From positions 2,876-66,875 of the IMG/VR virus record IMGVR_UViG_3300037249_000373: a DNA stretch of 64,000 nt. The stretch is one strand, 5' to 3'. Positions 922 through 54,500 of the stretch are shown here, piece by piece. How positions within the stretch are numbered: the first letter of the stretch is position 1; every line of letters begins with the position of its first letter. Both the position numbers and the translations under genes were made by a program. Below the pieces are notes generated by a model that ran no database searches, was not told the origin of the DNA, and saw nothing but the letters and a program-made list of their open reading frames with translations. Source of the DNA: a virus. Lineage: Duplodnaviria > Caudoviricetes.

Positions 922-1503
922 ATGAATGTAACAAATATTAAAGTATTTAACATACAAAGTGCATTAGAGGGTATGAGAAACCCTCTTGAATCATGGGCTA
1001 AAGGGGATACTAAAGATGGTATTATAGGTCCTAAAGACATGGTATTAGCTAAATCCCTTATAAAGGGAGGAACAGAGCATAGAAAGTTTCTAAGACAGAT
1101 TTTTGTAAGTATGTATATACAAGCTCCTATGTACTGGTTTGCTGAACTGGATACATATAAAATAGGTACTACTCGTAACAGTACCAGCTTTATGCATACA
1201 GGCTTAAAACAGCCATTTGTCCTTGGTGATTTTGCTCACTCAAAAGATAATGAATATTGGCTAAATAACATTAACTATTTAAACAAATTAAGGGAGGAAT
1301 ATAATACTACTAAATCTCCTGAAATATTTGAAGAATTAAGAAGTATTTTACCTTCTGGTTTTATCTATGGTTCTACTCTTACAATGAACTATGAGAATGT
1401 ATTAAATATGATAAACCAAAGAAAGAATCATAAACTATCAGAATGGAGAGAACTCTGTAAAATTCTAATGGATTTACCATATATCAAAGATTTCTATTCA
1501 TAA
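922..1503 (+). CDS. ThyX/Thy1-like (FAD-dependent thymidylate synthase fold) protein, divergent
   Basis: 'GTEHRKFLRQIFVSMYIQAPMYWFAELDTYK', 'ELRSILPSG' and 'TMNYENVLNMINQRKNHKLSEWREL' align by eye to ThyX blocks; canonical RHRx7S motif absent. Confidence 0.6.
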   Translation: MNVTNIKVFNIQSALEGMRNPLESWAKGDTKDGIIGPKDMVLAKSLIKGGTEHRKFLRQIFVSMYIQAPMYWFAELDTYKIGTTRNSTSFMHTGLKQPFVLGDFAHSKDNEYWLNNINYLNKLREEYNTTKSPEIFEELRSILPSGFIYGSTLTMNYENVLNMINQRKNHKLSEWRELCKILMDLPYIKDFYS

Positions 1504-3171: not shown

Positions 3172-3184
3172 AGGGCTACGCCCT
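3172..3184 (+). promoter_or_regulatory. N4-type hairpin promoter candidate (AGGGC-TAC-GCCCT)
   Basis: 5-bp stem; the - (template) strand reads C-GTA-G triloop, the class used by N4 vRNAP promoters; lies 41 bp upstream of RNAP1. Confidence 0.65.
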
Positions 3185-3225: not shown

Positions 3226-4125
3226 ATGAATGATTTAAAAGAAGTGTGCAAGATACTCGCACCTAAAATAAAACAAAAGATAGTATCTCGTATCCTGGCC
3301 AGATATGAAGTATTAAAGGGTAAGGTTACCAAGCAAGGTAAACCTTATAATACACAATATCTAGATGAGCTATTACAATTAGCTCAAATAGTAAAATTGG
3401 AACCATTAATCGAGAATACAATTCTCAGATTAAGGGAAACTTCAAAAAGCGAGCCAACAAGTATACATCAGTTTGTAGGCTCAACAGTTCCAAAAGAACT
3501 GGAATGGTGTATTTCGAGTAAAAGGTTAGCTCGCTTAGGCCAGTGGGCTACAATGTTTCTAGATACATTAGTAGTAGACTTCCATATAATTAAGAAGTCA
3601 GATGTAAAAATAGAAGCTAATAATGGGTTATTTATGGACGGTTATTATTTAAACCGTCAAGCTTTAATTCAAAACTATGGCTGTGAAGGAATAACACAGC
3701 CTAACAAAAAACCAAGATTAACCCATAGAGTGTTAGGCACAATATGGGCAAGGGATGGTAATGAATTAGATCATAATGATATTGCCCTAGAGTTACTTAA
3801 CAATACTCCATTAACATTCAACCAGGATGTAATGGAAAAGTTAGGATACGAATTCAATCTCTCTGAACCAGATAAGAAAGATTGGGATTCAGTGAAATTC
3901 CCAGTGTATGAAGACTGGGTAGAAGCTAGAGAAAAAGCCCACAAGGCTTATATATCTAAGCTCCCAGAGTATATAAAGAAAGAATCAGGTGTGGTTTACA
4001 ATACCTATGCACCGGATTCAAGGGGTAGACTCTACCCAACTAATGATACCGGCAACTTTGTAGGTATAAAATATGTTAGAGCAGTTATTCAATCTGCTGA
4101 ACCAGACAAAATTGAACTAGAGTAA
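3226..4125 (+). CDS. RNA polymerase II subunit 1 (N4 gp15-like)
   Basis: 'YAPDSRGRLYP' is the T7-type DxRGRxY motif; size and position as in N4-like phages. Confidence 0.9.
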   Translation: MNDLKEVCKILAPKIKQKIVSRILARYEVLKGKVTKQGKPYNTQYLDELLQLAQIVKLEPLIENTILRLRETSKSEPTSIHQFVGSTVPKELEWCISSKRLARLGQWATMFLDTLVVDFHIIKKSDVKIEANNGLFMDGYYLNRQALIQNYGCEGITQPNKKPRLTHRVLGTIWARDGNELDHNDIALELLNNTPLTFNQDVMEKLGYEFNLSEPDKKDWDSVKFPVYEDWVEAREKAHKAYISKLPEYIKKESGVVYNTYAPDSRGRLYPTNDTGNFVGIKYVRAVIQSAEPDKIELE

Positions 4126-4206: not shown

Positions 4207-5457
4207 ATGAAATTATATACAGCATTCCAATATGTATTGAGCCAAGTAGGTTCATTCGTATTGGGAATGGACAAAGATTCATTCGAAAACCGTATTAATG
4301 CGGTAAAAGGAATGGCAATGGATAAATTAGAAGCCATTGCAGAAAACCTAACAGGTACAAACCAGGCTTTAGCATACCAGAGCTTGGTAATGTATAAGGA
4401 CGTTCTAACAAAACGTCAAACCAGGTTATTCATATTCTTAGACTGGTGCTCATCAGGTGCCAGTCTCCTAGCTGCACTTACAAGGTGCATTAAAGGCATG
4501 GAGTCATGTGGTGTATTTAATACTACAAAACCAGGTAATCTTTACCAGGAGGTTACCGACCTTTTGATTAAAAAGCTTAATGATTTAAGCTTAACTAGAT
4601 CAGAAACCAAGTCCTTTACAGTTCCATTTTATTATGGTGGTGACGCCAATGTGAGATGGGCTCTAGGGGAAGAAAACGTGCATACATTCCATGAGGTATA
4701 TGCAGAGCTCTTACCAGGAGCATATGACTTCCGCAACAAGGGAGTAAATGCATGGAATGAGTCCAAGGATGAGTACTCATGGACAATGCCAGATGGTTAT
4801 CAGGTAGCAGTACCAGTGCTATCAGATAGTGAACTGGTTACGGTGGACTTTAACGGTGGCAGTTACAAATGTCACTTTAAGGTTAAAGCTCCTAGACCTA
4901 CTTACATAGAAACAAATCAAAACCACTATGTAAGAAACCACAAGACAAAAGGTTTAGGTGCACATGTGATTCATTCTACCGATGCTCTTGTATTGAGAGA
5001 GATGGTAGGAATGGCTCATATGCCACGCTATAAGGCTGAGGCTATATTGCGTCAAACCAAGAAAGGTTATGATGCCGATATGGCTGAAGACAAAACATTA
5101 GAACATTTATTGTTGGCTTGGGAAAATACCAATATGCCATCAGTAAGATGGTTCTATGAACTGTCACAGTTTGAAAATGCAGTTACATTACCATATGAAC
5201 TGTATGATCAACTGGCTGAATTAGCAACCAGGTTAGATGATATAGAATTTGACATGATTACAATTCATGATGAATTCGGTTGTCTACCATCTCATGTAAA
5301 CAGCATGAGAAAGTATGCAAATATAATTTATGCCAATATATACCGTTCTAACTTAATGGACTATTTCAATAGAACATTAAATATGGATGTCAAAGTTGGC
5401 GAATTCAAGCAAGAGATCTATGACAGATTATTGGAGGTAGATTACTTATTGTCATAG
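4207..5457 (+). CDS. RNA polymerase II subunit 2 (N4 gp16-like)
   Basis: Motif A 'FLDWCSSG', motif B 'RSETKSFTVPFYYGG', 'VIHSTDA', motif C 'TIHDEFG'. Confidence 0.92.
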   Translation: MKLYTAFQYVLSQVGSFVLGMDKDSFENRINAVKGMAMDKLEAIAENLTGTNQALAYQSLVMYKDVLTKRQTRLFIFLDWCSSGASLLAALTRCIKGMESCGVFNTTKPGNLYQEVTDLLIKKLNDLSLTRSETKSFTVPFYYGGDANVRWALGEENVHTFHEVYAELLPGAYDFRNKGVNAWNESKDEYSWTMPDGYQVAVPVLSDSELVTVDFNGGSYKCHFKVKAPRPTYIETNQNHYVRNHKTKGLGAHVIHSTDALVLREMVGMAHMPRYKAEAILRQTKKGYDADMAEDKTLEHLLLAWENTNMPSVRWFYELSQFENAVTLPYELYDQLAELATRLDDIEFDMITIHDEFGCLPSHVNSMRKYANIIYANIYRSNLMDYFNRTLNMDVKVGEFKQEIYDRLLEVDYLLS

Positions 5458-5470
5458 TTTCTTGTTGGAG

Positions 5471-5506
5471 GGCACAGCTCGCAAGCTCGCTGTGCCTATT
5501 TTATTG
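5471..5506 (+). terminator. intrinsic terminator
   Basis: GGCACAGC...GCTGTGCC followed by TATTTTATT. Confidence 0.6.
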
Positions 5507-5526: not shown

Positions 5527-5555
5527 ACAAGGCGATGGATAGAGGGCGTAGCCCT
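5527..5555 (+). promoter_or_regulatory. ACAAdGCGATGG motif copy 5 followed by an inverted hairpin AGGGC-GTA-GCCCT
   Basis: ACAAGGCGATGG at 5527-5538; hairpin at 5543-5555 is in the opposite orientation to the other copies. Confidence 0.6.
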
Positions 5556-5597
5556 GTAATAAGTTTATTATTTTTTATTTTTTAGGAGTTAAAAAAA

Positions 5598-6008
5598 ATG
5601 GGTATATTAGCGATAAATTTAACTCAGCACGAATTAACTGCTGAGCAGAAAGAAGATGCGTATTGGGTAAGATTTGATTCTTACAATGGTACAAACAGTA
5701 ACATTGAAATAAAAAAGTTGTTAACTTTTGAGTTTCAACCAGATACAGCTGAAATACAAGAAAGAGCAGAAAAATTAGCAGAAATCGCTGAAGGAATTTT
5801 CCTTCAGTTAGATCCTGAGGAGGCATTGCCTCATAAAACTCTAATAGGAGGGGCACCATATTTAATGGGCCCATTAGAAAAAGAATTACATAAGAGAGGA
5901 ATACAACCAATGTACTCCTTCTCTAAGAGGGTATCCATAGAAACTACCAATGAAAAAGGAATTATTAAGACATCCACATTTAAACATGTGGGATGGATAG
6001 AGGTATAA
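5598..6008 (+). CDS. Csx20/Crn1-like protein, candidate cyclic-oligoadenylate ring nuclease
   Basis: N-terminal 'INLTQHELTAEQKEDA', central 'LIGGAPYLM...IQPMYSFSKR' and C-terminal 'VSIETTNEKGIIKTSTFKHVGWIEV' resemble the Csx20 pattern recalled from memory. Confidence 0.55.
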   Translation: MGILAINLTQHELTAEQKEDAYWVRFDSYNGTNSNIEIKKLLTFEFQPDTAEIQERAEKLAEIAEGIFLQLDPEEALPHKTLIGGAPYLMGPLEKELHKRGIQPMYSFSKRVSIETTNEKGIIKTSTFKHVGWIEV

Positions 6009-6030
6009 ACTAATACTACATCAATTATTA

Positions 6031-6073
6031 AATAAGCTAGAACAGAGAAATCTGTTCTAGCTTATTTTTTTTT
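6031..6073 (+). terminator. intrinsic terminator
   Basis: AATAAGCTAGAACAGA-gaaa-TCTGTTCTAGCTTATT plus T-run. Confidence 0.85.
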
Positions 6074-6093
6074 AATAGAGCTAAAAGTTCATA

Positions 6094-6106
6094 AGGGCTA
6101 CGCCCT
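6094..6106 (+). promoter_or_regulatory. TAC-loop hairpin promoter candidate
   Basis: AGGGC-TAC-GCCCT, identical to 3172-3184. Confidence 0.65.
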
Positions 6107-6178: not shown

Positions 6179-6535
6179 ATGATCTACACAAGTTATTATG
6201 CAAAAGCACGTTATATTAAAAATGCTATTCTGGTACAGATAAGTAACAGTGCTCCTATGAATGTGGATTATACAATCAGACCTGCAATACCAGCATGGTC
6301 AATAGTATCTGCACATAAAAACAAACAAATTACTAATGAGCAATACACTGAAAGATATATTGCTGATACCGATTTTGTTGCTGTTAAAGCTGAGTTAGAT
6401 GCCATTCAAGCAACAAATAAGGATAAGAATATTATCTTATTGTGTTATGAGAAACCAAATAGTTTCTGTCATAGACATATCCTTGCTGAAAAGCTTAACG
6501 AGGATTATAACTTAAACATTAAGGAATGGGTTTAG
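6179..6535 (+). CDS. DUF488-family protein
   Basis: 'MIYTSYYAK' start and 'LLCYEKPNSFCHRHILAEKL' signature. Confidence 0.8.
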   Translation: MIYTSYYAKARYIKNAILVQISNSAPMNVDYTIRPAIPAWSIVSAHKNKQITNEQYTERYIADTDFVAVKAELDAIQATNKDKNIILLCYEKPNSFCHRHILAEKLNEDYNLNIKEWV

Positions 6536-7255: not shown

Positions 7256-7672
7256 ATGAAATTTAGAGATGATTTTTGGTTTTTAAGTAATATGTATGTT
7301 AGTCCAATTACATACAAAGAAATTAAATACTTATGTGTAGAAGGAGCTTTCCAAGCTCAGAAATGCCCTGAGAGAGCATCAGAATTTACTCATTTAAGAG
7401 GCTTTGAGGCTAAAAAATTAGGTAAAACAGTTAAACTTAGAAAAGATTGGGAAGATGTAAGAGTACCAATCATGCTTGAACTGTTAGAGATTAAATTCTC
7501 TAAACCAGAATTACAAAAGAAATTAATTGATACAGGTGATATTGAACTCATTGAAGATAATGAGTGGAGAGATACCTTTTGGGGTAAATACCATGGTAAA
7601 GGAAGAAATATGTTAGGTAGATTACTGATGGTTGTAAGGAATGAAATACAAGACCCTCAGAAACCACTCTAG
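7256..7672 (+). CDS. NADAR (YbiA-like) family protein
   Basis: 'FWFLSNMY', 'VEGAFQAQK', 'WEDVRVPIM...KFS', 'TGDIELIEDNEWRDTFWG' and 'GRNMLGRLLMVVR'. Confidence 0.9.
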   Translation: MKFRDDFWFLSNMYVSPITYKEIKYLCVEGAFQAQKCPERASEFTHLRGFEAKKLGKTVKLRKDWEDVRVPIMLELLEIKFSKPELQKKLIDTGDIELIEDNEWRDTFWGKYHGKGRNMLGRLLMVVRNEIQDPQKPL

Positions 7673-7899: not shown

Positions 7900-8925
7900 A
7901 TGCTTATTAAGGATTTAGTTAAAAGTGTAGAAGTTGCAGTTAAGAGTGGTGTTGTACCTTTCATTCAAGGTTCACCAGGAATCGGTAAGAGTGATATTGT
8001 TAAGCAGGTAGCTAATAAATATAAACTCAAATTAATTGATATTCGTCTAAGTCAGTGTGACCCAACTGACTTAAGTGGTCTACCTAAACTCAATGGCAAT
8101 AGAGCAGAATTCTTACCATTCAATATATTCCCTATTGAGGGAGATGAACTACCGGAAGATAAATCAGGCTGGCTCATCTTTTTAGATGAAATTAATAGTG
8201 CTAGCAGAGCTGTACAGGCATCAGCATATAAGCTAGTGCTTGATAGAATGGTAGGTAATCATAAACTACATAGAAATGTAGTTATTGTATGTGCTGGTAA
8301 TAAAGACAGTGATAATGCAATTACCAATCAAATCAGTACTGCATTGAGATCAAGATTTATTACTCTTACCCTTGAACCAGATGTAAAAAGCTGGTTGCAA
8401 TGGGCTTATGATAATAATATTGATTGGAGAATTACAGCATATATTAACTACAAGAATATATCGGGATTATATGACTTTGATCCAGATAAGACAGATACAG
8501 CATATGCTTGTCCTCGTTCATGGGCTATGCTTGATAAGCTTATTAAACATATAGCTGAAGATAAACTTAAAGATTATATGGAATTGTTACAGGGTACCAT
8601 AGGTAATCAGGCAAGTATATTTATTGAATTCTGTGCTTGTATGAACATTCTTCCTAAGTTTGAAGATATTCTTAATGGTAAGGCTGAAGTTAAAGCTAAG
8701 ACACCAGGAGAGAAATATTTGTTATCTGGTTTTGTTATCAATAATGGTGACAAGATACTTACTGAAGAACATGCTCAGAACTGTATTAATTACCTTGATG
8801 AGATAGGTAAAGAATTCAGTATACCTTTCTTCAGTAATTGTATAAGAAAGTACCCTAGACTACTTAAATTCAGAGCAGTTACAACCAAAGCCAAAGAATA
8901 TTCACTTTGGTTAAATGAGAGATAA
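7900..8925 (+). CDS. MoxR-like AAA+ ATPase (N4 gp24-like)
   Basis: Walker A 'GSPGIGKS', Walker B 'LIFLDEIN', 'AGN', 'ALRSRF', 'CPRSW'. Confidence 0.9.
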   Translation: MLIKDLVKSVEVAVKSGVVPFIQGSPGIGKSDIVKQVANKYKLKLIDIRLSQCDPTDLSGLPKLNGNRAEFLPFNIFPIEGDELPEDKSGWLIFLDEINSASRAVQASAYKLVLDRMVGNHKLHRNVVIVCAGNKDSDNAITNQISTALRSRFITLTLEPDVKSWLQWAYDNNIDWRITAYINYKNISGLYDFDPDKTDTAYACPRSWAMLDKLIKHIAEDKLKDYMELLQGTIGNQASIFIEFCACMNILPKFEDILNGKAEVKAKTPGEKYLLSGFVINNGDKILTEEHAQNCINYLDEIGKEFSIPFFSNCIRKYPRLLKFRAVTTKAKEYSLWLNER

Positions 8926-8927
8926 TT

Positions 8928-10076
8928 ATGGATAAAGATAGACTTACTAAAGCCAAAGTCAGATTGCAATTAAAGGATAGATTCCTTGGTGCATTGGCTA
9001 TGATGGCTGAGTGGGAAGAGAATAATGAAATTCCCACTATGGGTACTGATGGTACCAGAATTGTATATAACAGTAACTTTATTGACAAGCTATCAATAGA
9101 AGAACTGGAAGGTGTTATTGCTCATGAATGCTTACATATAGCATTACAACATCCTTTAAGAGCAGAAGTAGGTAACTATGATAAGAATCTATTTAATATA
9201 TCTGCTGATTATGTAATAAACCAGGAATTGGTAGATAATGGAATGAAACTGCCAAATGGTGGTTTATTGAGTAGAGAATTTAGAGGACTATGTACTGAAG
9301 AAGTATATGAGATACTCTATAAAAAAGCAGATTATAAAAAAATAGATTTTAATGAATGTCAATGTAGTGGTGGTAATAACTCAGGAGAACCAGAAGGTAA
9401 ACTGCTTACTGATTCTATGCATGGTGATGTTCTTAAACCAAATAAAGACATACATAAAATCAAATCAATGATTATTACTGCTTCCTTAGTAGATAAATCA
9501 TCAAGCTGGGCTATGCAAGGAAAGGAATTCAAACGTGAATTTGATAAACTTACCAACCCTAAACTACCTTGGGAAGTACTATTAAGGAAATATGTAAATG
9601 GTTTCTTCAAAGATGATTTTACATGGCAAAGACCTAACAGAAGATACCAGGATATGTATTTACCTAGTATATCTGATACAGAAATGCTTGTAAGTGTTAA
9701 TGTATATATGGATATTTCTGGTTCAGTAAGTGATGACATGGTTACTAAATTCCTGTCTGAAATAAAAGGTATTTATAAGAAATATACATTACAGCATATG
9801 TCTATAAGCAACTTCAGTATAGGTATCAATGATGTAATTGAAATGTCAGATCATTGGAATCCAAAGGTAATAGGATTACATTCAAGAGGTGGTACTGAAA
9901 TAGACTCGGTTATAGAAGATATTAATAAACGTAAAGGTACTATTAATATTATATTTACTGATGGCTATTTTGATGAGAGTCCTGTTGATAAAGCTAAATA
10001 TCCTGTTCTTTGGATTATTTATGATAATCATAACTTTAAACCAGTTAAAGGAAAAGTTATTGAAATAACTGTATAA
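8928..10076 (+). CDS. metallopeptidase + vWA domain protein (N4 gp25-like)
   Basis: HExxH 'AHECLH'; MIDAS 'DISGS'; 'GGTE'; 'FTDGY'; paired with the ATPase. Confidence 0.88.
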   Translation: MDKDRLTKAKVRLQLKDRFLGALAMMAEWEENNEIPTMGTDGTRIVYNSNFIDKLSIEELEGVIAHECLHIALQHPLRAEVGNYDKNLFNISADYVINQELVDNGMKLPNGGLLSREFRGLCTEEVYEILYKKADYKKIDFNECQCSGGNNSGEPEGKLLTDSMHGDVLKPNKDIHKIKSMIITASLVDKSSSWAMQGKEFKREFDKLTNPKLPWEVLLRKYVNGFFKDDFTWQRPNRRYQDMYLPSISDTEMLVSVNVYMDISGSVSDDMVTKFLSEIKGIYKKYTLQHMSISNFSIGINDVIEMSDHWNPKVIGLHSRGGTEIDSVIEDINKRKGTINIIFTDGYFDESPVDKAKYPVLWIIYDNHNFKPVKGKVIEITV

Positions 10077-10833: not shown

Positions 10834-10848
10834 AGGGGCTACGCCCTT
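10834..10848 (+). promoter_or_regulatory. TAC-loop hairpin promoter candidate
   Basis: AGGGGC-TAC-GCCCTT, 30 bp upstream of the next gene. Confidence 0.6.
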
Positions 10849-20275: not shown

Positions 20276-22437
20276 TTGAAGAATTAATTAACAGTGCTCC
20301 ATATAATCCTACAATGGAGCGTATACTTGAAGTAATTGAAAAGAAGACAGGTAATAATTCACATAATTATTTTAGAATTGTTATATCATTCTATCTTACT
20401 CAACTTGCTTCTAATATGAGATGTAAAATCAAAGGTGCACTATATAACAATGTACCTATCAATATGTATGCATGTACTCTTATGCCTAGTGGTTCAGGTA
20501 AAGGACATAGCCAGGATATTATTGAATCACAGGTAGTAAATCAGTTTAGAGCAAGCTTTATTAACTCTACACTACCACAGTTAACTCAAACCAACTTGGA
20601 TAAACTTGCACAGCAAAAGAGTATCATTACAGGTATGCCTGTTGATGAGTGTTTAAATGCACTAACCAAAGAGTGTATGGAATATGGCAGTTTCCCATAT
20701 TCATTTGATAGTGCTACAGGTCCAGCATTTAAACAGGTAAGAGCCAAAGCACAACTATGTGGTGTAGGTGCATTATCGTTTATATGTGATGAAATAGGTT
20801 CTAATATATTAGCCAATCCTGAATTATTAGCTATTGGTTTGGAAGTATTTGACTTAGGTAAAACCAAGAGTAAATTAACCAAGGATAGTGCAACCAACAA
20901 AAGAACTGAATCAAGAGAAGATCCTGTACCTACTAATATGCTTTGGTTTGGTACACCTACAAAGCTACTTAATTCATCCAGAGAAGAAGATGAATTCTAT
21001 TCACAGCTACAGGCTGGATATGCACGTAGATTGTTCTACGGTGAGGGCGTTAAGACAAGTACCAAGTTTACATCAGGAAAAGAACTCAGAGATAGTCTGT
21101 TAACATGCAATGCAGATCAAACACTTCAAGATATATCAGATGACTTAGGTATTCTAGCAAGTCTGCAATTCTATAATAAAACATTATTATTAGGAGAATC
21201 AGAGGAAGAGTTAGTACTTGATTATAAGATATGGTGTGAAAACAGAGCAGAAGATTTATCTGACGAATCTACTGAGGCATTAAGAAAAGCAGAACTAAGT
21301 ACTAGATTTTGGAAAGCATTAAAGCTTGCTGGTGCTTATGCATTTATTGATAAATGTAATGTTATTGAAAAGAGACACCTACTAAGTGCATTTAAACTGG
21401 CAGAAGACAGTGGTAAATCATTTGAAAAGATAATGTATAGAGATCCTGATTTTGTCAAACTAGCCAAGTATGTAAGTAAAGCTGGTAAACCACTTACATT
21501 TGCAAGTCTTGCTGAATCGTTACCATTCTTTAAAGATAAGAATAAACAGGCATGTGATTATCTTATTACTTTGGCTTCTGCATGGGGATACGACAATGGT
21601 ATTGTACTAAAGTCATTTATGGTTAATAAAATACCATTCCTTGAAGGACAGAGACTTGAAGAAACAGACTTGGATAAGATTATTGTATCTGTATCAAATG
21701 ATATTACATATCATTATGATAACCAGGAAGTACCATGGAGCAAGATAGACAGATTTGGAGGTATTGATGGTATTAACTGGTGTACTCATCATTTCATGGC
21801 TGATAGTGCTAATCCAAGTATGGGTAACCACAGAAGTCAGAAATATGTAATACCAGCATTTAATCTTTTGGTTTTGGATATAGATCATAACTGTTCTATT
21901 GAATCAGCTCAGGAGATATTAAAGAAATATACTTATTGCTTATACACAACCAAAAGACATACGGATACAGAACCAAGATTCAGAATAATACTTCCTATGA
22001 AATATAAATTATTCCTTAATAAGGATGATTATTCAGCATTTATGACTAATGTATTTGAGTCTTTACCTTTCACTGGTTTAGATTCCCAGACAAAGGATAT
22101 ATCACGTAAATGGCTAACTAATAATGGTACTGTATATAGGAATGAAGGAGATTTGTTTGATCCTAGACCATATATACCTGATACATCACAGGATAAAGAA
22201 CGTAAAGAAAAGTTCAAGAACTATGGTGATGTAGATAATGTTACTCGCTGGTTCTTACAAAATACAGCAAATGGTAATAGAAATAACAATCTGTATAGAT
22301 ATGGAATGATGTTGCGAGATGTGGGCTACGCCCTCGATGAGGTTAAGTCCAAAATGACTGAACTTAATTCAAGACTGGAACAGCCATTAGACTTAGCAGA
22401 ATTAACAAACATATTTGACAGTGTATCGGTTAGTTAA
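20272..22437 (+). CDS. DNA primase(-helicase) (N4 gp43-like)
   Basis: P-loop 'SGSGKG'; AEP motifs 'LDID' and 'YTTKRH...PRFRIILP'; PriCT-like 'GNRNNNLYRYG'. Confidence 0.88.
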   Translation: MIEELINSAPYNPTMERILEVIEKKTGNNSHNYFRIVISFYLTQLASNMRCKIKGALYNNVPINMYACTLMPSGSGKGHSQDIIESQVVNQFRASFINSTLPQLTQTNLDKLAQQKSIITGMPVDECLNALTKECMEYGSFPYSFDSATGPAFKQVRAKAQLCGVGALSFICDEIGSNILANPELLAIGLEVFDLGKTKSKLTKDSATNKRTESREDPVPTNMLWFGTPTKLLNSSREEDEFYSQLQAGYARRLFYGEGVKTSTKFTSGKELRDSLLTCNADQTLQDISDDLGILASLQFYNKTLLLGESEEELVLDYKIWCENRAEDLSDESTEALRKAELSTRFWKALKLAGAYAFIDKCNVIEKRHLLSAFKLAEDSGKSFEKIMYRDPDFVKLAKYVSKAGKPLTFASLAESLPFFKDKNKQACDYLITLASAWGYDNGIVLKSFMVNKIPFLEGQRLEETDLDKIIVSVSNDITYHYDNQEVPWSKIDRFGGIDGINWCTHHFMADSANPSMGNHRSQKYVIPAFNLLVLDIDHNCSIESAQEILKKYTYCLYTTKRHTDTEPRFRIILPMKYKLFLNKDDYSAFMTNVFESLPFTGLDSQTKDISRKWLTNNGTVYRNEGDLFDPRPYIPDTSQDKERKEKFKNYGDVDNVTRWFLQNTANGNRNNNLYRYGMMLRDVGYALDEVKSKMTELNSRLEQPLDLAELTNIFDSVSVS

Positions 22438-42562: not shown

Positions 42563-45500
42563 TTATAGAGCTTCCCAGATAGTATTAGCTATCTTAACTG
42601 ATGTTAATCCATTTAAGCTATCTACAAATAACTCACCTGGGAAATTGAATTTATTAATCATTGTAGTTGTACCGAAGATACCTTCGTATATATTAGGTAA
42701 ACCAAAGATTAAATCATTCAATGCCATAAAGCTTACAGCTCTATCAGGGTTACCGAATATGCTATTTAACATAGCAGATTTAGAACCAAAAGCATACTTA
42801 GCAAAAGGATATACACCTATGCTGTCCAGATACTGAATACTCTTAGGTAATGGGTTAGAGTAATCAATAAAGGTTTGTAATGCTACTCTACTTGATTCTT
42901 CTTCAGAGAAACCAGTATTTCTCATGTGTTTATATAAAGCATACTTAGCTACAGTATCACCTGCATTAGCAAACATGAATAGAGCCTGATATAAATTACC
43001 TTTAGGAGACAGAGTAAATTCATGAGCTAAATCTCTTATCATTCCTTTAGGAGTAATATTATCAATCAAGTCCTTAAAGAACTTATCTGATTCAGCACTG
43101 TTCTCAGCCAAAGAATTAGATACAATACCTCTCTTATACAGTGGATACATAGGAGAATTCTCTATATTTTGTTTTAGAGCTCTTTCTTTAATAGCATCTG
43201 CATCAGTATAGGTATTATTAAATTGTTTAACCTTTAATGCTTTTAACTGCTTTTCCCATTCATTGATGGTACGCATAGCATTAAATGCTTCAGCCTGGTA
43301 TTGACCTATCTCTTTAAGAGACAATCCTTTAATGCCTAAAGTAACACAGTTAGATACAAGGTTATTCCATGAAGTGGTTAAACCCTTAATAACAATATTA
43401 TCTTTAGCTGTAGAGGCTAACCATTTAAAGAACTCTTCCATATTACCTGTTATACCATTGTGGAATACATACTTAACATAATTCATAAACTCAGTAGATA
43501 AGTCTGTCTTGAATTTATCCTGTTCTTCTATGGCTTTAACTGCTTCCTTGGTTGCATCTATATCATTAGCAGATAACTGTTTATAACCAAAAACAGTAGT
43601 AAGAGCTTTCTTCATAACAGGTATTCCATTATCACCATATTTTTCAGTAGCTATTGCTTTAGTATCATATGGTAATGAATTGTATAATTCTCTATATTCT
43701 TCATTCTCTGAGTTATCAGATAACCATACAAACTGATTTGAATTACCCTGTTTAGCAAAGTGTTCATAAATATTAATCATAGCTTCACCAGCTGTTCTAT
43801 TAAACTCACTGGATTGACTACGTTCAATACATGAACCATAAATATCACCTAATACAGATGTTATTTTTTGGTTTCTTCCAATTACTTCATCTGTAGTAAC
43901 AGGATTTAATTCAAAATTAGCACCTGTAAGTCTATCTATATAATTAAAGTTAAGTACCAGATTACCATGAGGAGCTTTCTGTAATAACTGAGGGTTAGGT
44001 TTATTAAGAGCATTAACTCTCTGGTTTACATATTTCTTTAATTCCTCATATTCTTTGGTTCTCTTCCAGTCTATTTCTTTATCTACTTTACCTTCACCAT
44101 TGTAAGATAAACCAGATTTAGCTCTGCCTTTAAACAAGTCAGTCATAAGAGTAACACCAGCTACATAAGGAGTAGGTGATTTCCATTTAGCTTTAACAAT
44201 TACATATTTTTCTTTAGCTATACGCTTATAGAATGGGTCTAATTCAGCATCAGATACTTTTTCATAGCCATTCCATTGATATGCTTTAAGTTCACTTTCA
44301 GGGATAATATCATATCTACCTGTAGTTTTACCTCCATGTAACTGTCCCTTTGGTATATGATTTTTCTGTTGGTTATTACCATATACCTCAGTATATTCAG
44401 CATCTTTAACACCGTTATGCACCTTAGATAAATTCTCTATTACCCGTTCATCCAACTTGTCATAAACTGGATTTTTAATGAGATCTAGAGCATATAGAGT
44501 AGTTAACTGATCTACAACATTAACTATATCTCCGTTAAACTTACCCTTAGTTTGATAGCTTGAACCAGAAAGATTAACTATCTCATAGGCATTTCTATAG
44601 GCTAAACCAGTAGGATTAAAACCAGTAACAAGATATTGAGCTAAACCTTTAGCCATATTCTTATATGCATTAGCATATGTTTGACCATTAAGCTTATTTT
44701 CTAATTTCTTTATTTCTTTGGTTCTAGCATCTTTATTGGTTAACAATTCCTTAACTTCTTTAGCTGATTTAGTACTGTTAAATAAACAGCTAATATCAGT
44801 TCTAATGAACTGTCTGGTTAACTCACGTTCTACCTCTTTAGGTACATCCTTAAGTATGTCTTTAACAGTATTATTAACAGCATCAGCACCTCTTTCACGA
44901 GACTGGTCTATTAACATCTTACCTTGGTTTCTTATCTGTAAGTATCTGTACATATCAGGTGAAGCACCCTCAATAGAACCAGCTAAATCATTTGCAAAGT
45001 TTTCAAGGTATTTAAACTTAGATGAGGTAAATTCTCTGATACCATCAGTAAGTACAGTGGCTATATCTTGAGTACCTTTTCTTTCATACTCATTAGCCAG
45101 TGTAACCAAAGATGATGAACTACCTATAATATCTTCTATTGGATTATGCAAATTACCTAATAATCTTTCATAAGGAGTTTCATTTGCACCTCTTGCATAG
45201 TCATACTCTTTAGGTACAGTACTGTCCTTACCTATAGAGGCTTCTTGCCAGAACTTGGCAGATGCTTTATAGGAAGATCTGAAGATACCATCTACAGCAC
45301 TAACCAAAGAAGTAAATTCTGCTTTGGATTTAGGTTGATATTCTCCTGATATGAAGGATGTTAACTTAGTAATAACAGCAATAAACAGATTTTTAATCTT
45401 TTCTATTAAACCCATTTTAGCTTTATGCTTACCTATTCTGTTTTCCATATTGCGTATAGCTTGTCTGAACTTAGGGCAAGATACTGCATAAGCACCGAAC

Positions 45501-48500
45501 TCTTCCAGATGATTAGGTGTTTGAGGGTTGGTAATAGCATCCATAATAAGTCTATTAGCTGGAGTATCACCATCTTCAAAATCATCAAGAGTTAAGTTAT
45601 CCATAGCTGTATTGAATATCTTGGTTAGTTCCTGTTTAGCTCTAGGGTCTGCATGTCTCCATACAGTATGGGAGTACTCATGTCTCATAGCTTCTGTTTG
45701 AGATTCACCATTATTGGCTTTACCAAGAATAATCTCCTCATTACGAGCAACACCATATTCATCTCTTTCAAGTGATACCTGAGATACATCAATGGTATTA
45801 GAAGCTTCATCCATAAACAAAGTAATAGGTGTGGTAGAGTTAACCATTAAATCATCCAACCAGGATAATTCAGTATCATTGGTATCTACACCTCTTTCTG
45901 AGTCCATACGCTTACATTCATTTAATGCTCCTTTAAGAGATACACTGCCATTAAGCATATCTCTAGTCATATCAGAAAGGTTTCTATTTGCTGGCTTACC
46001 TCTCATGTTTCTAACATCCATATTTACTTGATCAGTAAATTCTTTATTATGAGTAGGTATACGTCTAAATGCATGGAATACACTGGCAATACCATTTACA
46101 GCACTTGTAAACATATTTCTCTTATTAACTTTAATCTCATCAGCTACAGTTTGCATTGCTTTCTTACTGATGTTATTTAAGCTTAAGAAGGTATAGCTAA
46201 AATCAGTACTGTCAGGTACAGTTAAATAAGCATCTGAATAATCAAAGGTATTATCTTTATGGATAAAAGCTAAGTTATTAATGCCTACTGCACTAAGCTT
46301 ATTCTGAATAACACCTAAGCATCTTGCATTAACATTCTTTAAACCTTCATCATAATTATCTACCTCAAGCAGATTCTTATTTATTAAGGACCTATCAATA
46401 AATACTCTCTTATCTGAATTAGAGTCAGAGTTATTAGTTACAAACTTACGTACATTGTTTACATTTAGTTTAGCTTCATCACTTAACCAATCAAATAAAG
46501 GAGTACCTGTTACTAATTCCCATTGACCATAAGATTTAGCAACACTCTGAGCTAGTTCATTCTTAGCTATAGAGGTATCTCTTGTTACCTGGAATACATA
46601 ATAATGAATGTTATTAAGGCTATCAGTTACTTTTATTACTCTTGGTTTAAGGTATTCTCTCCATGTAATACCACCATTTAAGTATTTCTTATAGTCTTCT
46701 TGCATAGCTAATTTAGCCTGGAATACAGCACTGTTAAATTCAGGTAAATCCTTTAATAAACCTACTGTACCTTCATTAACGAGAGAACCATCAGAACACA
46801 TATTAATACCAATAGCATTAGTGTTAATACCATTCTTAGGAGTAAATATAGCACCTATACCGCCATGGTCTGCATCAAACCAAATAGAATCAGAACCAAG
46901 TTTAATATCTTTATAGCCTGTCTTTGTATAAGAGGCATCATTCTCAGGATTATCCTGTAGTATATCATCTAAGTCTATATCCTGTAGTGATCTGTCTCTT
47001 ATGCCATTAGTTTCTAAAGCAATAGTAGGTAATATATTATCCCTATCAGAAGTTTCATTAGACCATGAATCTCTTAGTTCACCTATTTCATTAGTAAAAT
47101 CTATGTCTACATTTGCTTTATCAGAATAGCTAGCTCTGTCTATCTGTTTATAATTACCAGAATCATCAATAGAACCAGATTGAGCTTTTTCACCATAGGC
47201 AGACTTATGCTCTATTAAATAGGACTCTGTTACATCCTGGTTTGATATATTCTGTAATAGCTGTACATTATCCTTAACAGTTCCTCTAGTAAAATGAATA
47301 GTAGGGTTATTACAGGATTGCTTTAAGCGTAATAATAACTCAGATTCCAAATCAGTTTTAGGAGAATTTCTAGTAAGGTCAGATACAGAAGGTACTACTA
47401 CAATAGATGTACCCTGGAACATTTCATAACCCTCAGTACCGGCTCTATCTATCATTCTCTGCAATGCTTGCATACGAAGAATATCCTGGCTTGAACGAAG
47501 AGTAAATACTATCTGTTTGTCACCAGCTTTTAACTTATCTTTATAGTAATTATATACAGCATTAAATATATTGCTATCAAACCATTCAGTTGTAGCAGTA
47601 TTCTTATCATAGTCAGCTCTAGAACCATAAATATTGTTCTTGTTAACTGCTTGTTCAATAACAGTATCTACACCTTCCCAGTCTAATTCACTGGATAAGT
47701 CTATAAAAGTAGTTTTTGTTTTATCAAATTCAGATAGATTAACTTTGAATTGGTCTGTACCAAATCTATGTAACAGCTTTTCAAAAGCTTCTTTCTGTCT
47801 TGTAGATAATCTGTTACCAAGGGATAAGCCTACGGCTTCTCTAAGAATATTCATTATATCCCATGAATTGAAAGAGCCTTTACCAAGCAGTTTATCCTTA
47901 TTAGCCAGGATAGCCTGATATAAGTTTCTAATAACATACATATTGTCAAGATGTAGTACTTTACCAATATCAATCTTAGTAAGAATCTCAAAAGCAGATG
48001 CTATTTTATTATTAGTACCACGACTAGCTAGTCTGTTATTAGTATCTTCAATATTAAATGTCTTTTTATTAGCTATATTGAATAAACCAGATAGATGTAC
48101 TTTATCAATAGTATTAGAACCAGTCTTAAGATGGTCATTAATATCCTTTAAGTATGCAGGTATTAAAGCTCTATTAAGTGCCATTGCATTAAAGATTTTA
48201 TTAAGAGTACCTTCCAGAGTTAAATCAATATATTCTGAATCAAATTTCTTTTTGCTATCATAATAAACGTTTTCTAATCTGGAATTTAGCTCCTCTTCAG
48301 TTATACCTAACTGAGTAAGATGATTATATAACCAGTTCTTTAAGCTTAAATCACCATCTCTTAAAATGCTTGCTATGCTGTCTGTTATAATTTTGTCAGC
48401 ATCAGCCTTTTTGATGAGTTCTTTATAAGCTTCTATTTCCTTTTCTAAATCCTTTTCAGTAGGTTGATAAGCAGAAGACTCATCTAAACTAAACTGGTTT

Positions 48501-51500
48501 ACATAAAATGTTTTATCTCCTCTCTTGGCTTTCTCATAATTAAGTTCAGCCATAGCTAAACCAGAAAATAGAACATCCATTTGAGTACTGTCTTCACACT
48601 GAGCTATAGTACGTTCATATTGAGCTATCAACTTACCAGCGGTATCACCTAGCAGTTCTTTATGGTTTTGAATCCATCTTAGAGAAGCACGTAGTTTTTC
48701 ATCTCTATTTACACACATCTCAGCTATACGCATTCTGTCTGTATAGAATATCTTATTTAATTCAGGCATAGCAGATAACTGATTCAGACCAGCTATCATA
48801 GCATCATGAATAGGTAATCCTTTACCATATCCGTTTCTTAACATATAGTCCTGGAAGTTGGTCATATTGTAACTATCAATAGAATGTACAGTTACAGGTG
48901 ATTGACCAGCCCCTAAACCCTCAAGATAAGGTGAAGTATATTTGGTATTAAGTATTAAAGTACTGCCTCCTTTCATAAGAGTCATAGCACTTAATCTTGT
49001 ATTAACATCCTTAATAAGAGCTTCTTTAAAGGTACTTAACTCAGAACCAGATAAATCAGTACTTTCTTCTATACCCACAATACCAGAGAATATCTTAGTT
49101 AGCTCATTGGCTATATCCTGAGCTTTCTCCATTAAGTCTATATAGGTATATTCTTTAAGATTACCATTTTCATCAGTAAATGCTTTTTTAATAAGTTTCT
49201 CTAATACTACATTATAAGCAAAAGCCTGCTGATTAGTAGCAAGGTTATTATAACTAAGTACTCTCTGACCTTCTTTAAGAGCATCTGATACACTGTTATA
49301 GATAGGATCTAAAACACTTTCAGTTAATTTGGCTTTAGTAACAACATTCTCAGACAGATCTATATTTACTTCTCTTCTGGCTTTCTCATTACTAAAGATA
49401 TTTATACCGATACTGTTTCTATTTTTATCAAGAATATTACCCTCTCTGTCCAGGAAACAATTATTGTCTTCATAAGTAACAGATAAATAACCTTCATTAT
49501 AACCTACTAAGTCCTTAATAAGTTTTCTCATATTATCATTAACTTCACCAGCAAGTACTTTAGATACCTGTTCACTGATAAGCTTTAAGAAATCTAAAGA
49601 TACAGATTCTCTACCGGCACTGTAAGTAATATACATTACCGGGTATTTCATGAAGTTACGAGTCATAATACCTCTAAGGGTATCTACAATATTTGTTGTA
49701 TCCAAGCCATAAATAGACTTAAGTATTTCTGTATTTGGATCATCCTGGAAGTTATTTGTTACAATGCTTTCTAGCGATTTAATAGCTACATTGTATTGAG
49801 AGAATGAACCAGAGATTAAGTAAGTATCAAGGAAACCAGAACTAAGAATATCTACATAGTTTGTAAATACACTTGATAAACCTACACCTGTAGATAACAT
49901 CATATTCAATGGGTCTTGAGTGCCTTCAAATACACCTATCATAGCTCTAATAGCCGGACCATTAGTAGTACCATCTACTTCAATTCTAAGAGTGTAATTA
50001 GATATAGTATTAGATGGATTAAACAACTGAGCTATATCTGTAATAGCATTGGTCCTTCCTTTTGCATCTTTTATTTGTATATCCTTTAATTTAAGTAAAG
50101 TGTATACAGCTTCATGCTTATACTTTATTTGGAATAACTCAGCCTTTTCAGCATTCTTTTCATAATCTGGTTTAATTACATTAAAGCTTACTTCACTGGC
50201 TTTGTCTTCACCTTGTTTTGCATAATCACTAATATCTTCATTAAACTTGTCTATAGCTTTCTGCCAAGTATCAGGCTTATCAGGATCAATGCTTTGTAAT
50301 AGAGTATTAAAGGCATTATGTAATACACCATCTTTTTGACTCAATTTGTCCATTAAAGCACTAATGGCTTCAGGTCTCATTTTATCCCAACCTAGATCAA
50401 AACCATGAAGAATAGGTAATAAGAAATCAGTAGCATTAACTGTATATTTATTAGGATTAGTTGCATCAGGAACAGACCTGTCCTTACCTATAGTAAATTC
50501 CATTTGTCTCATATCGTTCATTTCAAATAAGTTTCTGTACATCTTATTTTCACGATAGTTATCAACAAGATTGTTTACAAACAGTCTGTTATTTACTGTA
50601 TTTTCTTCATCAAAATACATAGGAACAAAAGTATCAGTAGAATTCCATAGTTTATTACCTATAAATTCAGCTGTTTTTAATAAGCTTCTTAAAGCTTGAT
50701 AGTTACGAGTATTGATATTAGTAGCGAATTTACCTTGTTCTTTATTAGGATCTTCATAATCAATCAATAAACCAATATTAGGATGTGCTTTTACTAGCTC
50801 TGCCAATTTCTCAGGCGTATCAAAGTTAATTTCACTAATAGTTACCTTACCAGTAGCATCTATCAAATCTTTGAACATCTGTTTAGTTCTAGGTATATTC
50901 TGTAAAGATGGTTCAATAATATTAGCTAATATCTGAGCTAATCTTAAATGAGATACCTTAGTACCATCTTTCTTAAAGATTATATTATCAGAATAGTAAT
51001 ATGTTTGTTTTATATCCTTCTTTTTACCCTCTAGTTTAATAATACCATTATCTGCATCATGACTAAGTTTAACATCAGTTAAAGTACCCACTTGACCGAA
51101 GCTATCAAGTTCAACACCGTTAGTATATTCAGTTCCTAATTCTTTTTGGTATTCCTGGAATTCTGTTTTAATTCTAGGATTTTTAAGTCTATTGGTATAA
51201 CCAAGTAAGTTATCTAATATACTTACAGTATTACCTGATTCATTGGTAAAGGTATCCATTGTATTTATAGTAGACTGCATATCAGTACCCTTGTTAAGTA
51301 ACTTAACTACAGGCATGGTATTAGCGAATGTAGTACCTTTATCTGCTTTAGTATATTTACCATCAGCTCTGGATAGTCTACCTACTTCTATATAGCCAAG
51401 TTCATGTAATAAAGCAACACAGTGATTACCCATATCTTTTACAAGATTACTGTACATAAGAGCATTATCACTGTCATGCTTATATCCTAAAGCATTGGCA

Positions 51501-54500
51501 CACATTTTACCCATTTGATCTCTTATAGTACCTAAATCCATTACTTTATTTTTAGCAAACCATTCAGCAATAGGTACATTAGGGAATATTTGTGCTAATT
51601 TCTTTAAGAATTCTTCAGAGGCTTCTGTGCTAAAACCAGATAAACTAGCTAATGCTACAGCAGATACTACATTAAGATAGGAATCATTGTAGTAATCACC
51701 TATAGCTTCTATCTGACTAATAAGATGTCTACCAGTAGTATCTACAGCGAATTTTGATCTGGCTACAGATTTAGCATCTTTGATTAAGTTAACTATATCA
51801 TTTAATTGCTCTGAAATACTTGAATCTGTATTGGCAGATATAATTGCATTCAAAGCGTCATCAACTAATAAAGCAGATTTAATTCTAGGCTTAAATAAAC
51901 TGTTATATCTGTTTTCAGTTACATTGAATCTACGTATCTTCTCTATAGAGCTATTATTTGCATTTGGTTTAATAGTCTTTAAAGAACCTTTAGAACCAGT
52001 ATGAGCATAAGTATTATCAATATTCTTTGTATTTATAACTTTAGCAAGTATCTTAGCTATTTCATACTTATCTTCATTACTAATCTTATTTAGAAACTCA
52101 TTGCTAAATGAATCATACAGATTACCATTAGCATCAAATAACTGTTGTTTATTATTATCTAATAATTTCTTATTTTCAGGAGTATTAAAATAAGACTCTA
52201 AGTCACTTAAAGTAACATCGTTATAATTCAATACATCCAGTATACTAACCAAAGAATCAGATGTAATATCTTCCATTCTATAGGCTTGTTTGCCTGTATA
52301 TAAAGGTATAGATTCATTAGCTTGCTTATAGGCTTTTGCTATATTCCTTAATTGAGTTGTAACATCACTAATAGCATTGTTACCTATTCTATTCTCAGCT
52401 ATTACTTTACCTAGCCATAACTTACCAGCATTATTCAAAAAGAATTTTTGTAAGAATGGAGGTAAGTTAGAATTAAGAACATATTTACGTATATTATTCT
52501 TATTAAAAGTATCTAAAGATTGAATATAATTAACAAAACTTATTATGTCTGCTTTATAGTCCTCTTTAACTTTATCTGTTAAGACTGAAGTAAATGTAGT
52601 AGACGTATTAGCATAGGTTTTTTCTACAGCATTTAATATAATCCTTAATTTAGCTGTTTCTCTTTCAGCTGTATCAGTAATAGTACTAATCATATTTAAA
52701 ATGGTAACAGTACCTACAGATACATCGGCTATATCAGTTAAACCAAGATCAGCCTTAATAAAGTTTGTTATATTTTTTACTACATTAGTAAAATCTTTAG
52801 TATTTCTATAAGCAGACTCCCTGGATTTCAAATAGTCTTTAGCTGTAAGCTTAATAGCATTGCCTTCTATAAAACCAAGTAAACCTTGTACTACATTATC
52901 TTGTAATAATGTTCTTGCTACTTGAGCTTTAACCTTGCTATCCAACTTATTAAACATATCCTTAGGATTATCTTTAAAGGCATTAAAGAATTCTTTTACT
53001 TCTTTAATTTCAGTGCTGTCAGCAAAGTCCGTAGCTACGCTACCGGATGGTGTAGAACCATTAGCATCATATTTAAGTTTTAAATATTCCCATACTTCAT
53101 TAGGAAATTGTACATTAGCTAATGCTTGTTCAAAACCAATAAAACCAGAACTTAAAGAATCATTAAATATGGCTCTTACTTCAGCATCCACTATATTAGG
53201 ATCTATTAGGAGAGAGAACATATCGTCAATAAGTGTATCATCAGTTAGCCAGTTAGTTTCTTCATAGGTATCTGTATCAGTTAAACCAAAGTCATTCTTA
53301 CACTTATTATTAAAAGTATTTAATGAATCATATAACTTACCAAAGTTAGTTCTACGTGATTTAGGATTCTCTGAATTCCATTCTTCTTTAGAACCAGCTA
53401 ATAAAGAGAATGTAGTATCTTTAGCGTCAGGTAAAGAATTGTAAGGGAACTCAGTATCTATGATAGCAATAAGGTTATCTATAGCTGTCTTAAATGGCTT
53501 AATAGGATATACTCTATCACCGCTAATAAAATTAGCATCATTAACTAATCTGTTTAGCTTGGCTTGTATAAAGTGTAACTGGTCTACATTAAGCTTGGAT
53601 AGGTTCTTACTTTTTAAAGCACTTACAATACCATTGTAGTCTAACTCAGTAAGGTTTGTACCATCATAAAGATTTACTAAACCAAAGTTAAACAGAACAT
53701 CTGCTAAGTATTGCTGTAATTCATTATTATCAGACTTGGCATTTAAGAAACCAGTTAAGCCTAATCTTTTAGCTTCACTGTTAACCATCTTATTAGCTTC
53801 ATTTACATGTCTTATCTGATTCTTTATATAGGTACTCTTCTTAACTCTCTTAACTACATCAGAGAAACCTCTCATACGATAAGTACCTTCTCTTTTAAGG
53901 GACTTATTTGCTTTATTGCTATTCCAACTCTGGATTGCTTTTTCATTACCATCAGGTAAAAGGTTATTAATAACATCAAATACTTCTTGAGATTTATCAA
54001 GTTTATTGATGTCTTCTAAAGTAATGTCTTTAGCATCTTTCTTTAATGCTCTTCCTAATTTATTAGATAAGTTCTTATTATCATTTAAAAATTGTTTAAA
54101 CTCTTTATTAGCCTCAGTAAGTGTAGCATTTTTTACACCTGTTAAATCAGTTTTATCAAGTGAGATGACCTTACGTAAATTAGCATATTGATTATCTTCA
54201 GATTTAACTATGTAATACTTCTCAGTTCCATCTGATTTCTTAACAGATTTGATTTTAATAGTATTATTATCAATAAGCTTTTTATAGTCTTTTTCTATTT
54301 GTTCTTTAGAGTCATATACCTTAGCATTTTCAGATTCATAGATAGCATTATGTAGTTTAATAGACTCATCAAGTTTGGCTTTATTATCCTTAATAGCTTT
54401 AATAGTACCAGCTTCATCTGTAGTACCATATTTAGCTTTAAGAGCTTCTTTTTGTTCATCAGTTAGAGTAGCATATTTACTGTCTATATCCTCCATTTTG

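Follow-up and report, generated by a model that had tools for sequence, protein, structure and literature searches.

The question raised by the locus described here is whether a small gene of an uncultured phage encodes a ring nuclease of the Csx20 family, and whether such a protein is likely to be directed against the cyclic oligoadenylate (cOA) signals of type III CRISPR systems. The gene (5598..6008, plus strand, stop codon included) starts with ATG and encodes 136 amino acids. It lies in a stretch of 64,000 nucleotides (positions 2,876 to 66,875 of the IMG/VR virus record IMGVR_UViG_3300037249_000373), which is called the window throughout; the window is most of the 66.9-kb record and has approximately 32% G+C. 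An earlier note on this DNA had read the gene as encoding a Csx20/Crn1-like candidate ring nuclease. The Csx20-like candidate is supported by family homology, while membership in the Crn1 family is not; judged by profile matches and alignments, the protein truly belongs to the Csx20/MJ1673 family, within a divergent branch that is mostly phage-borne.

The resemblance to Csx20 is borne out by a search with a hidden Markov model (HMM). The NCBIfam model CAS_Csx20 (NF040559) matches the protein end to end with an E-value of 2.4e-08 and a score of 34.4 bits, residues 6-133 aligning to profile positions 2-121 of 124. This score is below the equivalog cutoff of NF040559 (70 bits), and the protein is therefore a family member on a divergent branch, not a curated equivalog. 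The model is matched by 58 of 60 relatives, the best of them reaching only E 4.9e-13, and the Csx20 models of PADLOC match the window protein with E 1.7e-07. The precomputed Pfam assignment PF27247 (“MJ1673”) is present on all 150 of the 150 near relatives considered, and since the Csx20 model matches Methanocaldococcus jannaschii above its cutoff in a control run, the names Csx20 and MJ1673 are tied together. A Pfam search of the window protein itself gives no match, the copy of Pfam used being older than PF27247; PHROGs gives noise only (E ~0.3), and sequence searches of the PDB give nothing with either the single protein or the family profile. Membership in Crn1 (the Sso2081-like CARF ring nucleases, CARF7) is not supported, and DUF1874, the domain of AcrIII-1/Crn2, has no Pfam match in the protein at E-values up to 10.

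The translation of 5598-6008 contains INLTQHELTAEQ, LIGGAPYLM, PMYSFSKRVSIE, and STFKHVGW, so that all four of the motif strings to which the earlier note had pointed are present in the plus-strand product, where they correspond to the conserved core of the family. In an alignment with 60 relatives the invariant columns are N7, T9, Q10, H11, Q17, F44, P48, G84, G85, A86, M90, and R111, and the near-invariant columns include Y106, F108, E115, K124, F128, H130, and G132. Because the same four blocks hold these invariant and near-invariant columns, the strings are not a product of chance. Comparison with the ortholog on L042, the contig of a related phage (86% identity), gives a ratio of nonsynonymous to synonymous substitution rates (dN/dS) of 0.086 at dS 0.89; the plus-frame gene is real and is under strong purifying selection. 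A minus-strand open reading frame (5575..5910) overlaps the coding sequence and is spurious, since the substitution pattern fits the plus frame.

For comparison with a Csx20 from a genuine type III system, a protein scoring 132 bits was taken from a Helicobacteraceae metagenome-assembled genome (G306; L041:9621-9998), where it is encoded by the last gene of a type III-A locus with Cas6, Cas10/Csm1, Csm2-5, and two CARF proteins; no canonical Csx20 over the cutoff is present in 301 cyanobacterial genomes. The window protein is 24% identical to this Csx20 (BLASTP, E 3e-05), and alignment of the window family profile with genuine Csx20 (hhalign) gives a probability of 97.6% and E 4e-12 over 120 columns. 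The positions that coincide, with the window protein given first and the CRISPR-type Csx20 second, are H11/H10, Q17/Q16, G85-A86/G75-A76, Y88/Y78, M90/M80, Y106/Y93, S109/T96, R111/R98, F128/F115, and H130/H117. The family-invariant residues (the N-terminal H and Q, the GA-x-Y-x-M loop, [ST]-x-R, and F-x-H) are all kept in the window protein. The same Helicobacteraceae genome has, in addition to the canonical Csx20 in its type III-A locus, a phage-type copy on another contig (L035:1599-1949); the two copies could be a host regulator and an invader's counter-measure within one cell, or the second could belong to a prophage.

One CRISPR-associated Csx20 has been shown to degrade cyclic tetra-adenylate (cA4) to linear products, and cyclic tri-adenylate (cA3) at higher enzyme dose (Hoikkala et al. 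2025, PMC12409355). By homology, the window protein is probably a cA4 ring nuclease that works as a homodimer and with which the phage clears the signal produced by Cas10 in type III CRISPR; the probability of this reading is put at about 0.65. The protein would be made early in infection, its gene forming a small transcription unit of its own beside the genes for RNA polymerase 2 (RNAP2). The homodimer would bind cA4 across its dimer axis and would cut it without metal into linear products, as the tested CRISPR-associated Csx20 does. The cA4 that Cas10 makes when a type III complex detects phage RNA would thus be removed, and cA4-dependent effectors (Csx1/Csm6, Can, Cam, CalpL, and similar proteins) would stay off. 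Dimerisation, the binding and cleavage of cA4, early expression, and the anti-CRISPR effect are what we infer for the window protein from its relatives and its setting.

The AlphaFold2 model of the window protein (predicted local distance difference test 91.6; predicted template modelling score, pTM, 0.83) is confident and consists of an alpha/beta core with a long beta-hairpin after it; the loops NLTQH and GGAPY are placed where the strands at residues 4-7 and 79-82 have their C-terminal ends. In CARF and Rossmann-like folds, these loops at the strand ends are the canonical ligand-binding positions. Foldseek returns nothing at E ≤ 0.001 for the monomer model, and the fold searches with the monomer are only suggestive of a CARF-like fold. 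The family also includes natural tandem fusions, and a two-repeat member is modelled with a pTM of 0.77. The top of both independent fold searches with this model consists exclusively of SAVED domains, with matches that span both repeats and a Foldseek match to Cap4 at E 2.8e-05. Since a SAVED domain is in effect two CARF-like units fused into a pseudo-dimer, the SAVED-like model of a tandem fusion supports, indirectly, a predicted CARF-type homodimer for single-repeat proteins such as that of the window. The fusions (proteins P0121-P0166) are tandems of two and three repeats with lengths of 261-668 amino acids, and the full motif set is often found in one repeat only.

The family is large, and the branch of the window protein is mostly viral. 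In an exhaustive search 1,449 clusters (50% identity) are found, of which 581 match at E ≤ 1e-10, and the nearest ESM Atlas clusters are 60-82% viral. One exact motif pattern is enough to recover at least 109 IMG/VR contigs of 5-269 kb, and the contexts looked at include a phiKZ-like jumbo phage, another phage type, and syntenic N4-like relatives. In the cultured-phage set, the family is found only in Rhodothermus phage RM378 (37% identity, E 9e-18), Pasteurella phage Pm86, and one uncultured Caudoviricetes record, while canonical CRISPR-type Csx20 has no phage match there. In Pm86 (MH238467.1, 55552-55740), where nothing is annotated, only the C-terminal 41-53% of the query finds a match, at the very end of the record; the gene may be truncated, or the chosen genome start may have split it. 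A quick tree, midpoint-rooted and with a narrowly sampled canonical clade, places canonical Csx20 apart from a phage-rich clade with a Shimodaira-Hasegawa-like approximate likelihood ratio test (SH-aLRT) support of 100 and a long branch between the two.

Two cellular members of the phage-rich clade (L024 and L031, 39-41% identical) are located in type III-D-like loci with the Csx7/Csx10 repeat-associated mysterious proteins and Cas10, which ties the branch to type III signalling without recourse to the HMM label. In the Synergistaceae locus (L024:8642-10384, plus strand), the Csx20-like domain is the C-terminus of a 580-amino acid protein whose N-terminal 450 residues have no NCBIfam match. 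The phage-rich branch might even be the main body of Csx20/MJ1673. Its substrate range may then differ (cA3, cyclic hexa-adenylate [cA6], or the signals of cyclic-oligonucleotide-based antiphage signalling systems [CBASS]), and it would represent a broad anti-signalling enzyme repeatedly borrowed by cellular type III-D loci, as proposed for AcrIII-1/Crn2; this idea is doubtful and is offered tentatively. The branch comprises at least 1,449 mostly viral clusters at 50% identity, as against the four phage genomes reported so far.

The homology and the fold evidence bear on binding and not on catalysis, which leaves room for a cOA binder that acts mainly as a sponge or as a very slow enzyme. Csx15, another small CARF-like “ring nuclease” candidate, is reported to bind cA4 well and to turn it over very slowly (PMC13148439; PMC12409355). 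A sponge of this type is nevertheless improbable for the window gene: the sole Csx20-family member to have been tested left nothing of a 100-fold excess of cA4 after 1 h (PMC12409355), the family-invariant polar residues H, Q, R, and H are all kept, and sponging has been argued to serve poorly when so much signal is made (PMC13148439). The identity of the ligand is a separate matter. The degradation of cA3 by Csx20 at higher enzyme dose (PMC12409355), the long branch between the phage-rich clade and canonical Csx20, and the presence of CBASS SAVED domains that bind cA3 and cGAMP among the best structural neighbours speak for a protein that binds or cleaves some other immune nucleotide, such as CBASS cA3 or cyclic dinucleotides, or cA6. 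Two members of the same branch, however, are found in type III-D-like CRISPR loci (L024 and L031) and not in CBASS operons, and a target of this kind is considered unlikely.

A function outside host immunity has also been weighed, namely that of a nucleotide-binding protein in the phage's own biology, for example in the regulation of transcription beside RNAP2. In three phage lineages the gene is found at one and the same site, immediately behind the RNAP2 genes, and the defence role of the phage copies has so far been a proposal. The family as a whole, however, occurs in unrelated phage types (phiKZ-like jumbo phages, N4-like phages, and others) at unrelated positions, a pattern characteristic of accessory and counter-defence genes and not of a core module, and its cellular homologs (L041; L024 and L031) are CRISPR-linked. 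A purely internal role for the protein is accordingly very improbable. A cA4 ring nuclease that removes the Cas10 signal is the reading preferred for the window protein.

The earlier note had ascribed to the gene its own regulatory elements and terminator, and a hairpin, a ribosome-binding site, and a strong terminator are indeed all found. The gene follows the RNAP2 genes and is a unit of its own, consisting of hairpin, ribosome-binding site, coding sequence, and strong terminator. The preceding RNAP2 unit is closed by a terminator-like structure (5470..5506, plus strand) composed of a hairpin with a 9-bp G+C-rich stem (5470-5497) and a U-rich tail; its fold has -16.1 kcal/mol and z -2.43, and in L042 the structure is kept (z -5.19) although the sequence is not. 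A promoter-like G+C hairpin, GGGC-GTA-GCCC (5544..5554, plus strand), lies approximately 45 nucleotides before the start codon of the Csx20-like gene, and a Shine-Dalgarno sequence, AGGAG (5584..5588, plus strand), lies 9 nucleotides before the ATG; the motif TTTAAGGAGTTAAA recurs before neighbouring genes. The intrinsic terminator downstream (6030..6076, plus strand) has a 17-bp stem, a 4-nucleotide loop, and a run of 9 T, with a fold of -23.8 kcal/mol and z -7.85. The terminator of L042 has exactly this sequence, and that of L005, in the corresponding position, is a different one.

The 11-nucleotide palindrome GGGC-NNN-GCCC is present in five copies in the window (3173-3183, 5544-5554, 6095-6105, 10836-10846, and 22323-22333), where 0.05 would be expected. 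Four of the five are approximately 45-80 nucleotides upstream of plus-strand genes, that of the RNAP2 small subunit among them, and the fifth is inside the 3' end of the primase gene. The loop is TAC in four copies and its reverse complement, GTA, in the one before the Csx20-like gene; the orthologs in L042 and L043 have the usual TAC loop at this hairpin. The injected virion polymerase of phage N4 has short hairpins with 3-nucleotide loops as its promoters, and the first transcripts of the RNAP2 gene must come from an enzyme other than RNAP2. By analogy, the GGGC-NNN-GCCC hairpin is plausibly an early promoter. The position of the Csx20-like gene and the hairpin that it has in common with an RNAP2 gene suggest early expression. 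An explanation of these hairpins as CRISPR repeats is ruled out; they are single 11-nucleotide palindromes before genes and form no arrays.

The carrier is a distant N4-like (Schitoviridae-type) phage by its hallmark genes. An open reading frame of 4,916 amino acids (42563-57316, minus strand) encodes a virion RNA polymerase of the N4 type, its C-terminal part matching phrog_2206 with E 1e-119; the PHROG match is confined to the last ~1,000 residues, and a central segment of 1,701 amino acids has no tblastn match in 50,697 phage records. The two subunits of the N4-type, T7-like RNAP2 are encoded directly upstream of the Csx20-like gene (3226-4125 and 4207-5457, plus strand); they match phrog_2051 (RNA polymerase, E 1.2e-64) and Pfam RNA_pol, and in tblastn are approximately 28% identical to “RNAP2-like” proteins of N4-like phages. 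With the virion polymerase and RNAP2 in the window, the Csx20-like gene is phage-encoded. Genes for a DNA polymerase, a primase, and a large terminase are also present. The window phage has no near relative among the same 50,697 phage records, and no tRNA genes and no cas genes are found in the window. No Aca regulator of the ribbon-helix-helix or helix-turn-helix type is found beside the Csx20-like gene.

The order RNAP2-RNAP2-Csx20-like gene is common to the three phage lineages represented by L042, L043, and L005, and the other neighbours vary. The next hairpin-led cassette after the Csx20-like gene encodes a DUF488-N3a protein (6179-6535, plus strand; “active DUF488-N3 subclade,” E 1.6e-10), which is present in L042 and L043 and not in L005. 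Two small cassettes downstream of the Csx20-like gene is a gene for a NADAR-domain protein (7256-7672, plus strand; Pfam E 4.9e-21), which is present in L005 and absent from the closer relatives L042 and L043, and is thus a variable accessory gene. NADAR enzymes reverse the ADP-ribosylation of guanine bases, and for this reason the protein could be a counter to DarT-type defence. A MoxR-type AAA ATPase and a DUF2201 metallopeptidase/VWA protein form a pair (7900-10076, plus strand) that is kept in all syntenic relatives, in a layout typical of N4-like phages. The leftmost region of the window includes a gene for a ThyX-like protein (922-1503, plus strand), identified by a weak match to Thy1.

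Several known systems resemble the one proposed here, to differing degrees. Csx20 itself (NF040559; PF27247), a stand-alone cA4 ring nuclease encoded in type III CRISPR loci, is similar to the window protein in size, at about 125-136 amino acids, and probably in fold, a CARF-like alpha/beta core with a long beta-hairpin behind it, which on the window side is predicted. The window protein differs in belonging to a separate, mostly viral clade and in being phage-encoded without cas genes nearby, and the motifs differ in detail: NLTQH and IGGAPYLM in the window protein correspond to (L/M)NH and QGDFGATYNM in Csx20. SAVED domains, including that of a viral SAVED ring nuclease (PDB 9r8s; PMC12751052), resemble the pseudo-dimers predicted for fused members of the family. 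The window protein, however, has a single repeat and would need to homodimerise, and its sequence identity to SAVED proteins is less than 12%. AcrIII-1/Crn2 (DUF1874) works in the way proposed here, as a small dimeric enzyme with which a phage destroys cA4 and so counters type III CRISPR, but the family is unrelated: the window protein has no DUF1874 match, and no such structure is among its fold matches. To our knowledge, ring nucleases are the main viral way past cOA signalling, and AcrIII-1 is the only viral example that is well established.

Phage homologs of Csx20 have already been published. Four genomes of the Millard set have them (PMC12409355), and the csx20-aca14 operon of Pasteurella multocida has been explicitly proposed to act in counter-defence (PMC13551039). 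A literature search found no paper in which a viral copy of Csx20 was tested. A counter-defence role for phage Csx20 has therefore been proposed in print before, and the window gene is, by its sequence relationships, likely to be a counter-defence gene of this kind. It adds no new kind of mechanism; its protein, at 136 amino acids, is a compact candidate, of high confidence, with which a viral Csx20 could be studied biochemically and in vivo for the first time. The gene and the relatives collected with it indicate that the viral branch is far commoner among uncultured phages than would be expected from the four cultured carriers on record, and that it also supplies type III-D CRISPR loci. The published phage and prophage homologs belong to the same branch as the window protein, as the matches in RM378 and Pm86 show, and have the same proposed counter-defence role. 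The window copy differs from them in being carried by an N4-like phage as a unit that runs from hairpin to terminator without an Aca regulator; this carrier, the self-contained unit, and a viral branch much larger than reported are what the present locus adds to the known Csx20 family.
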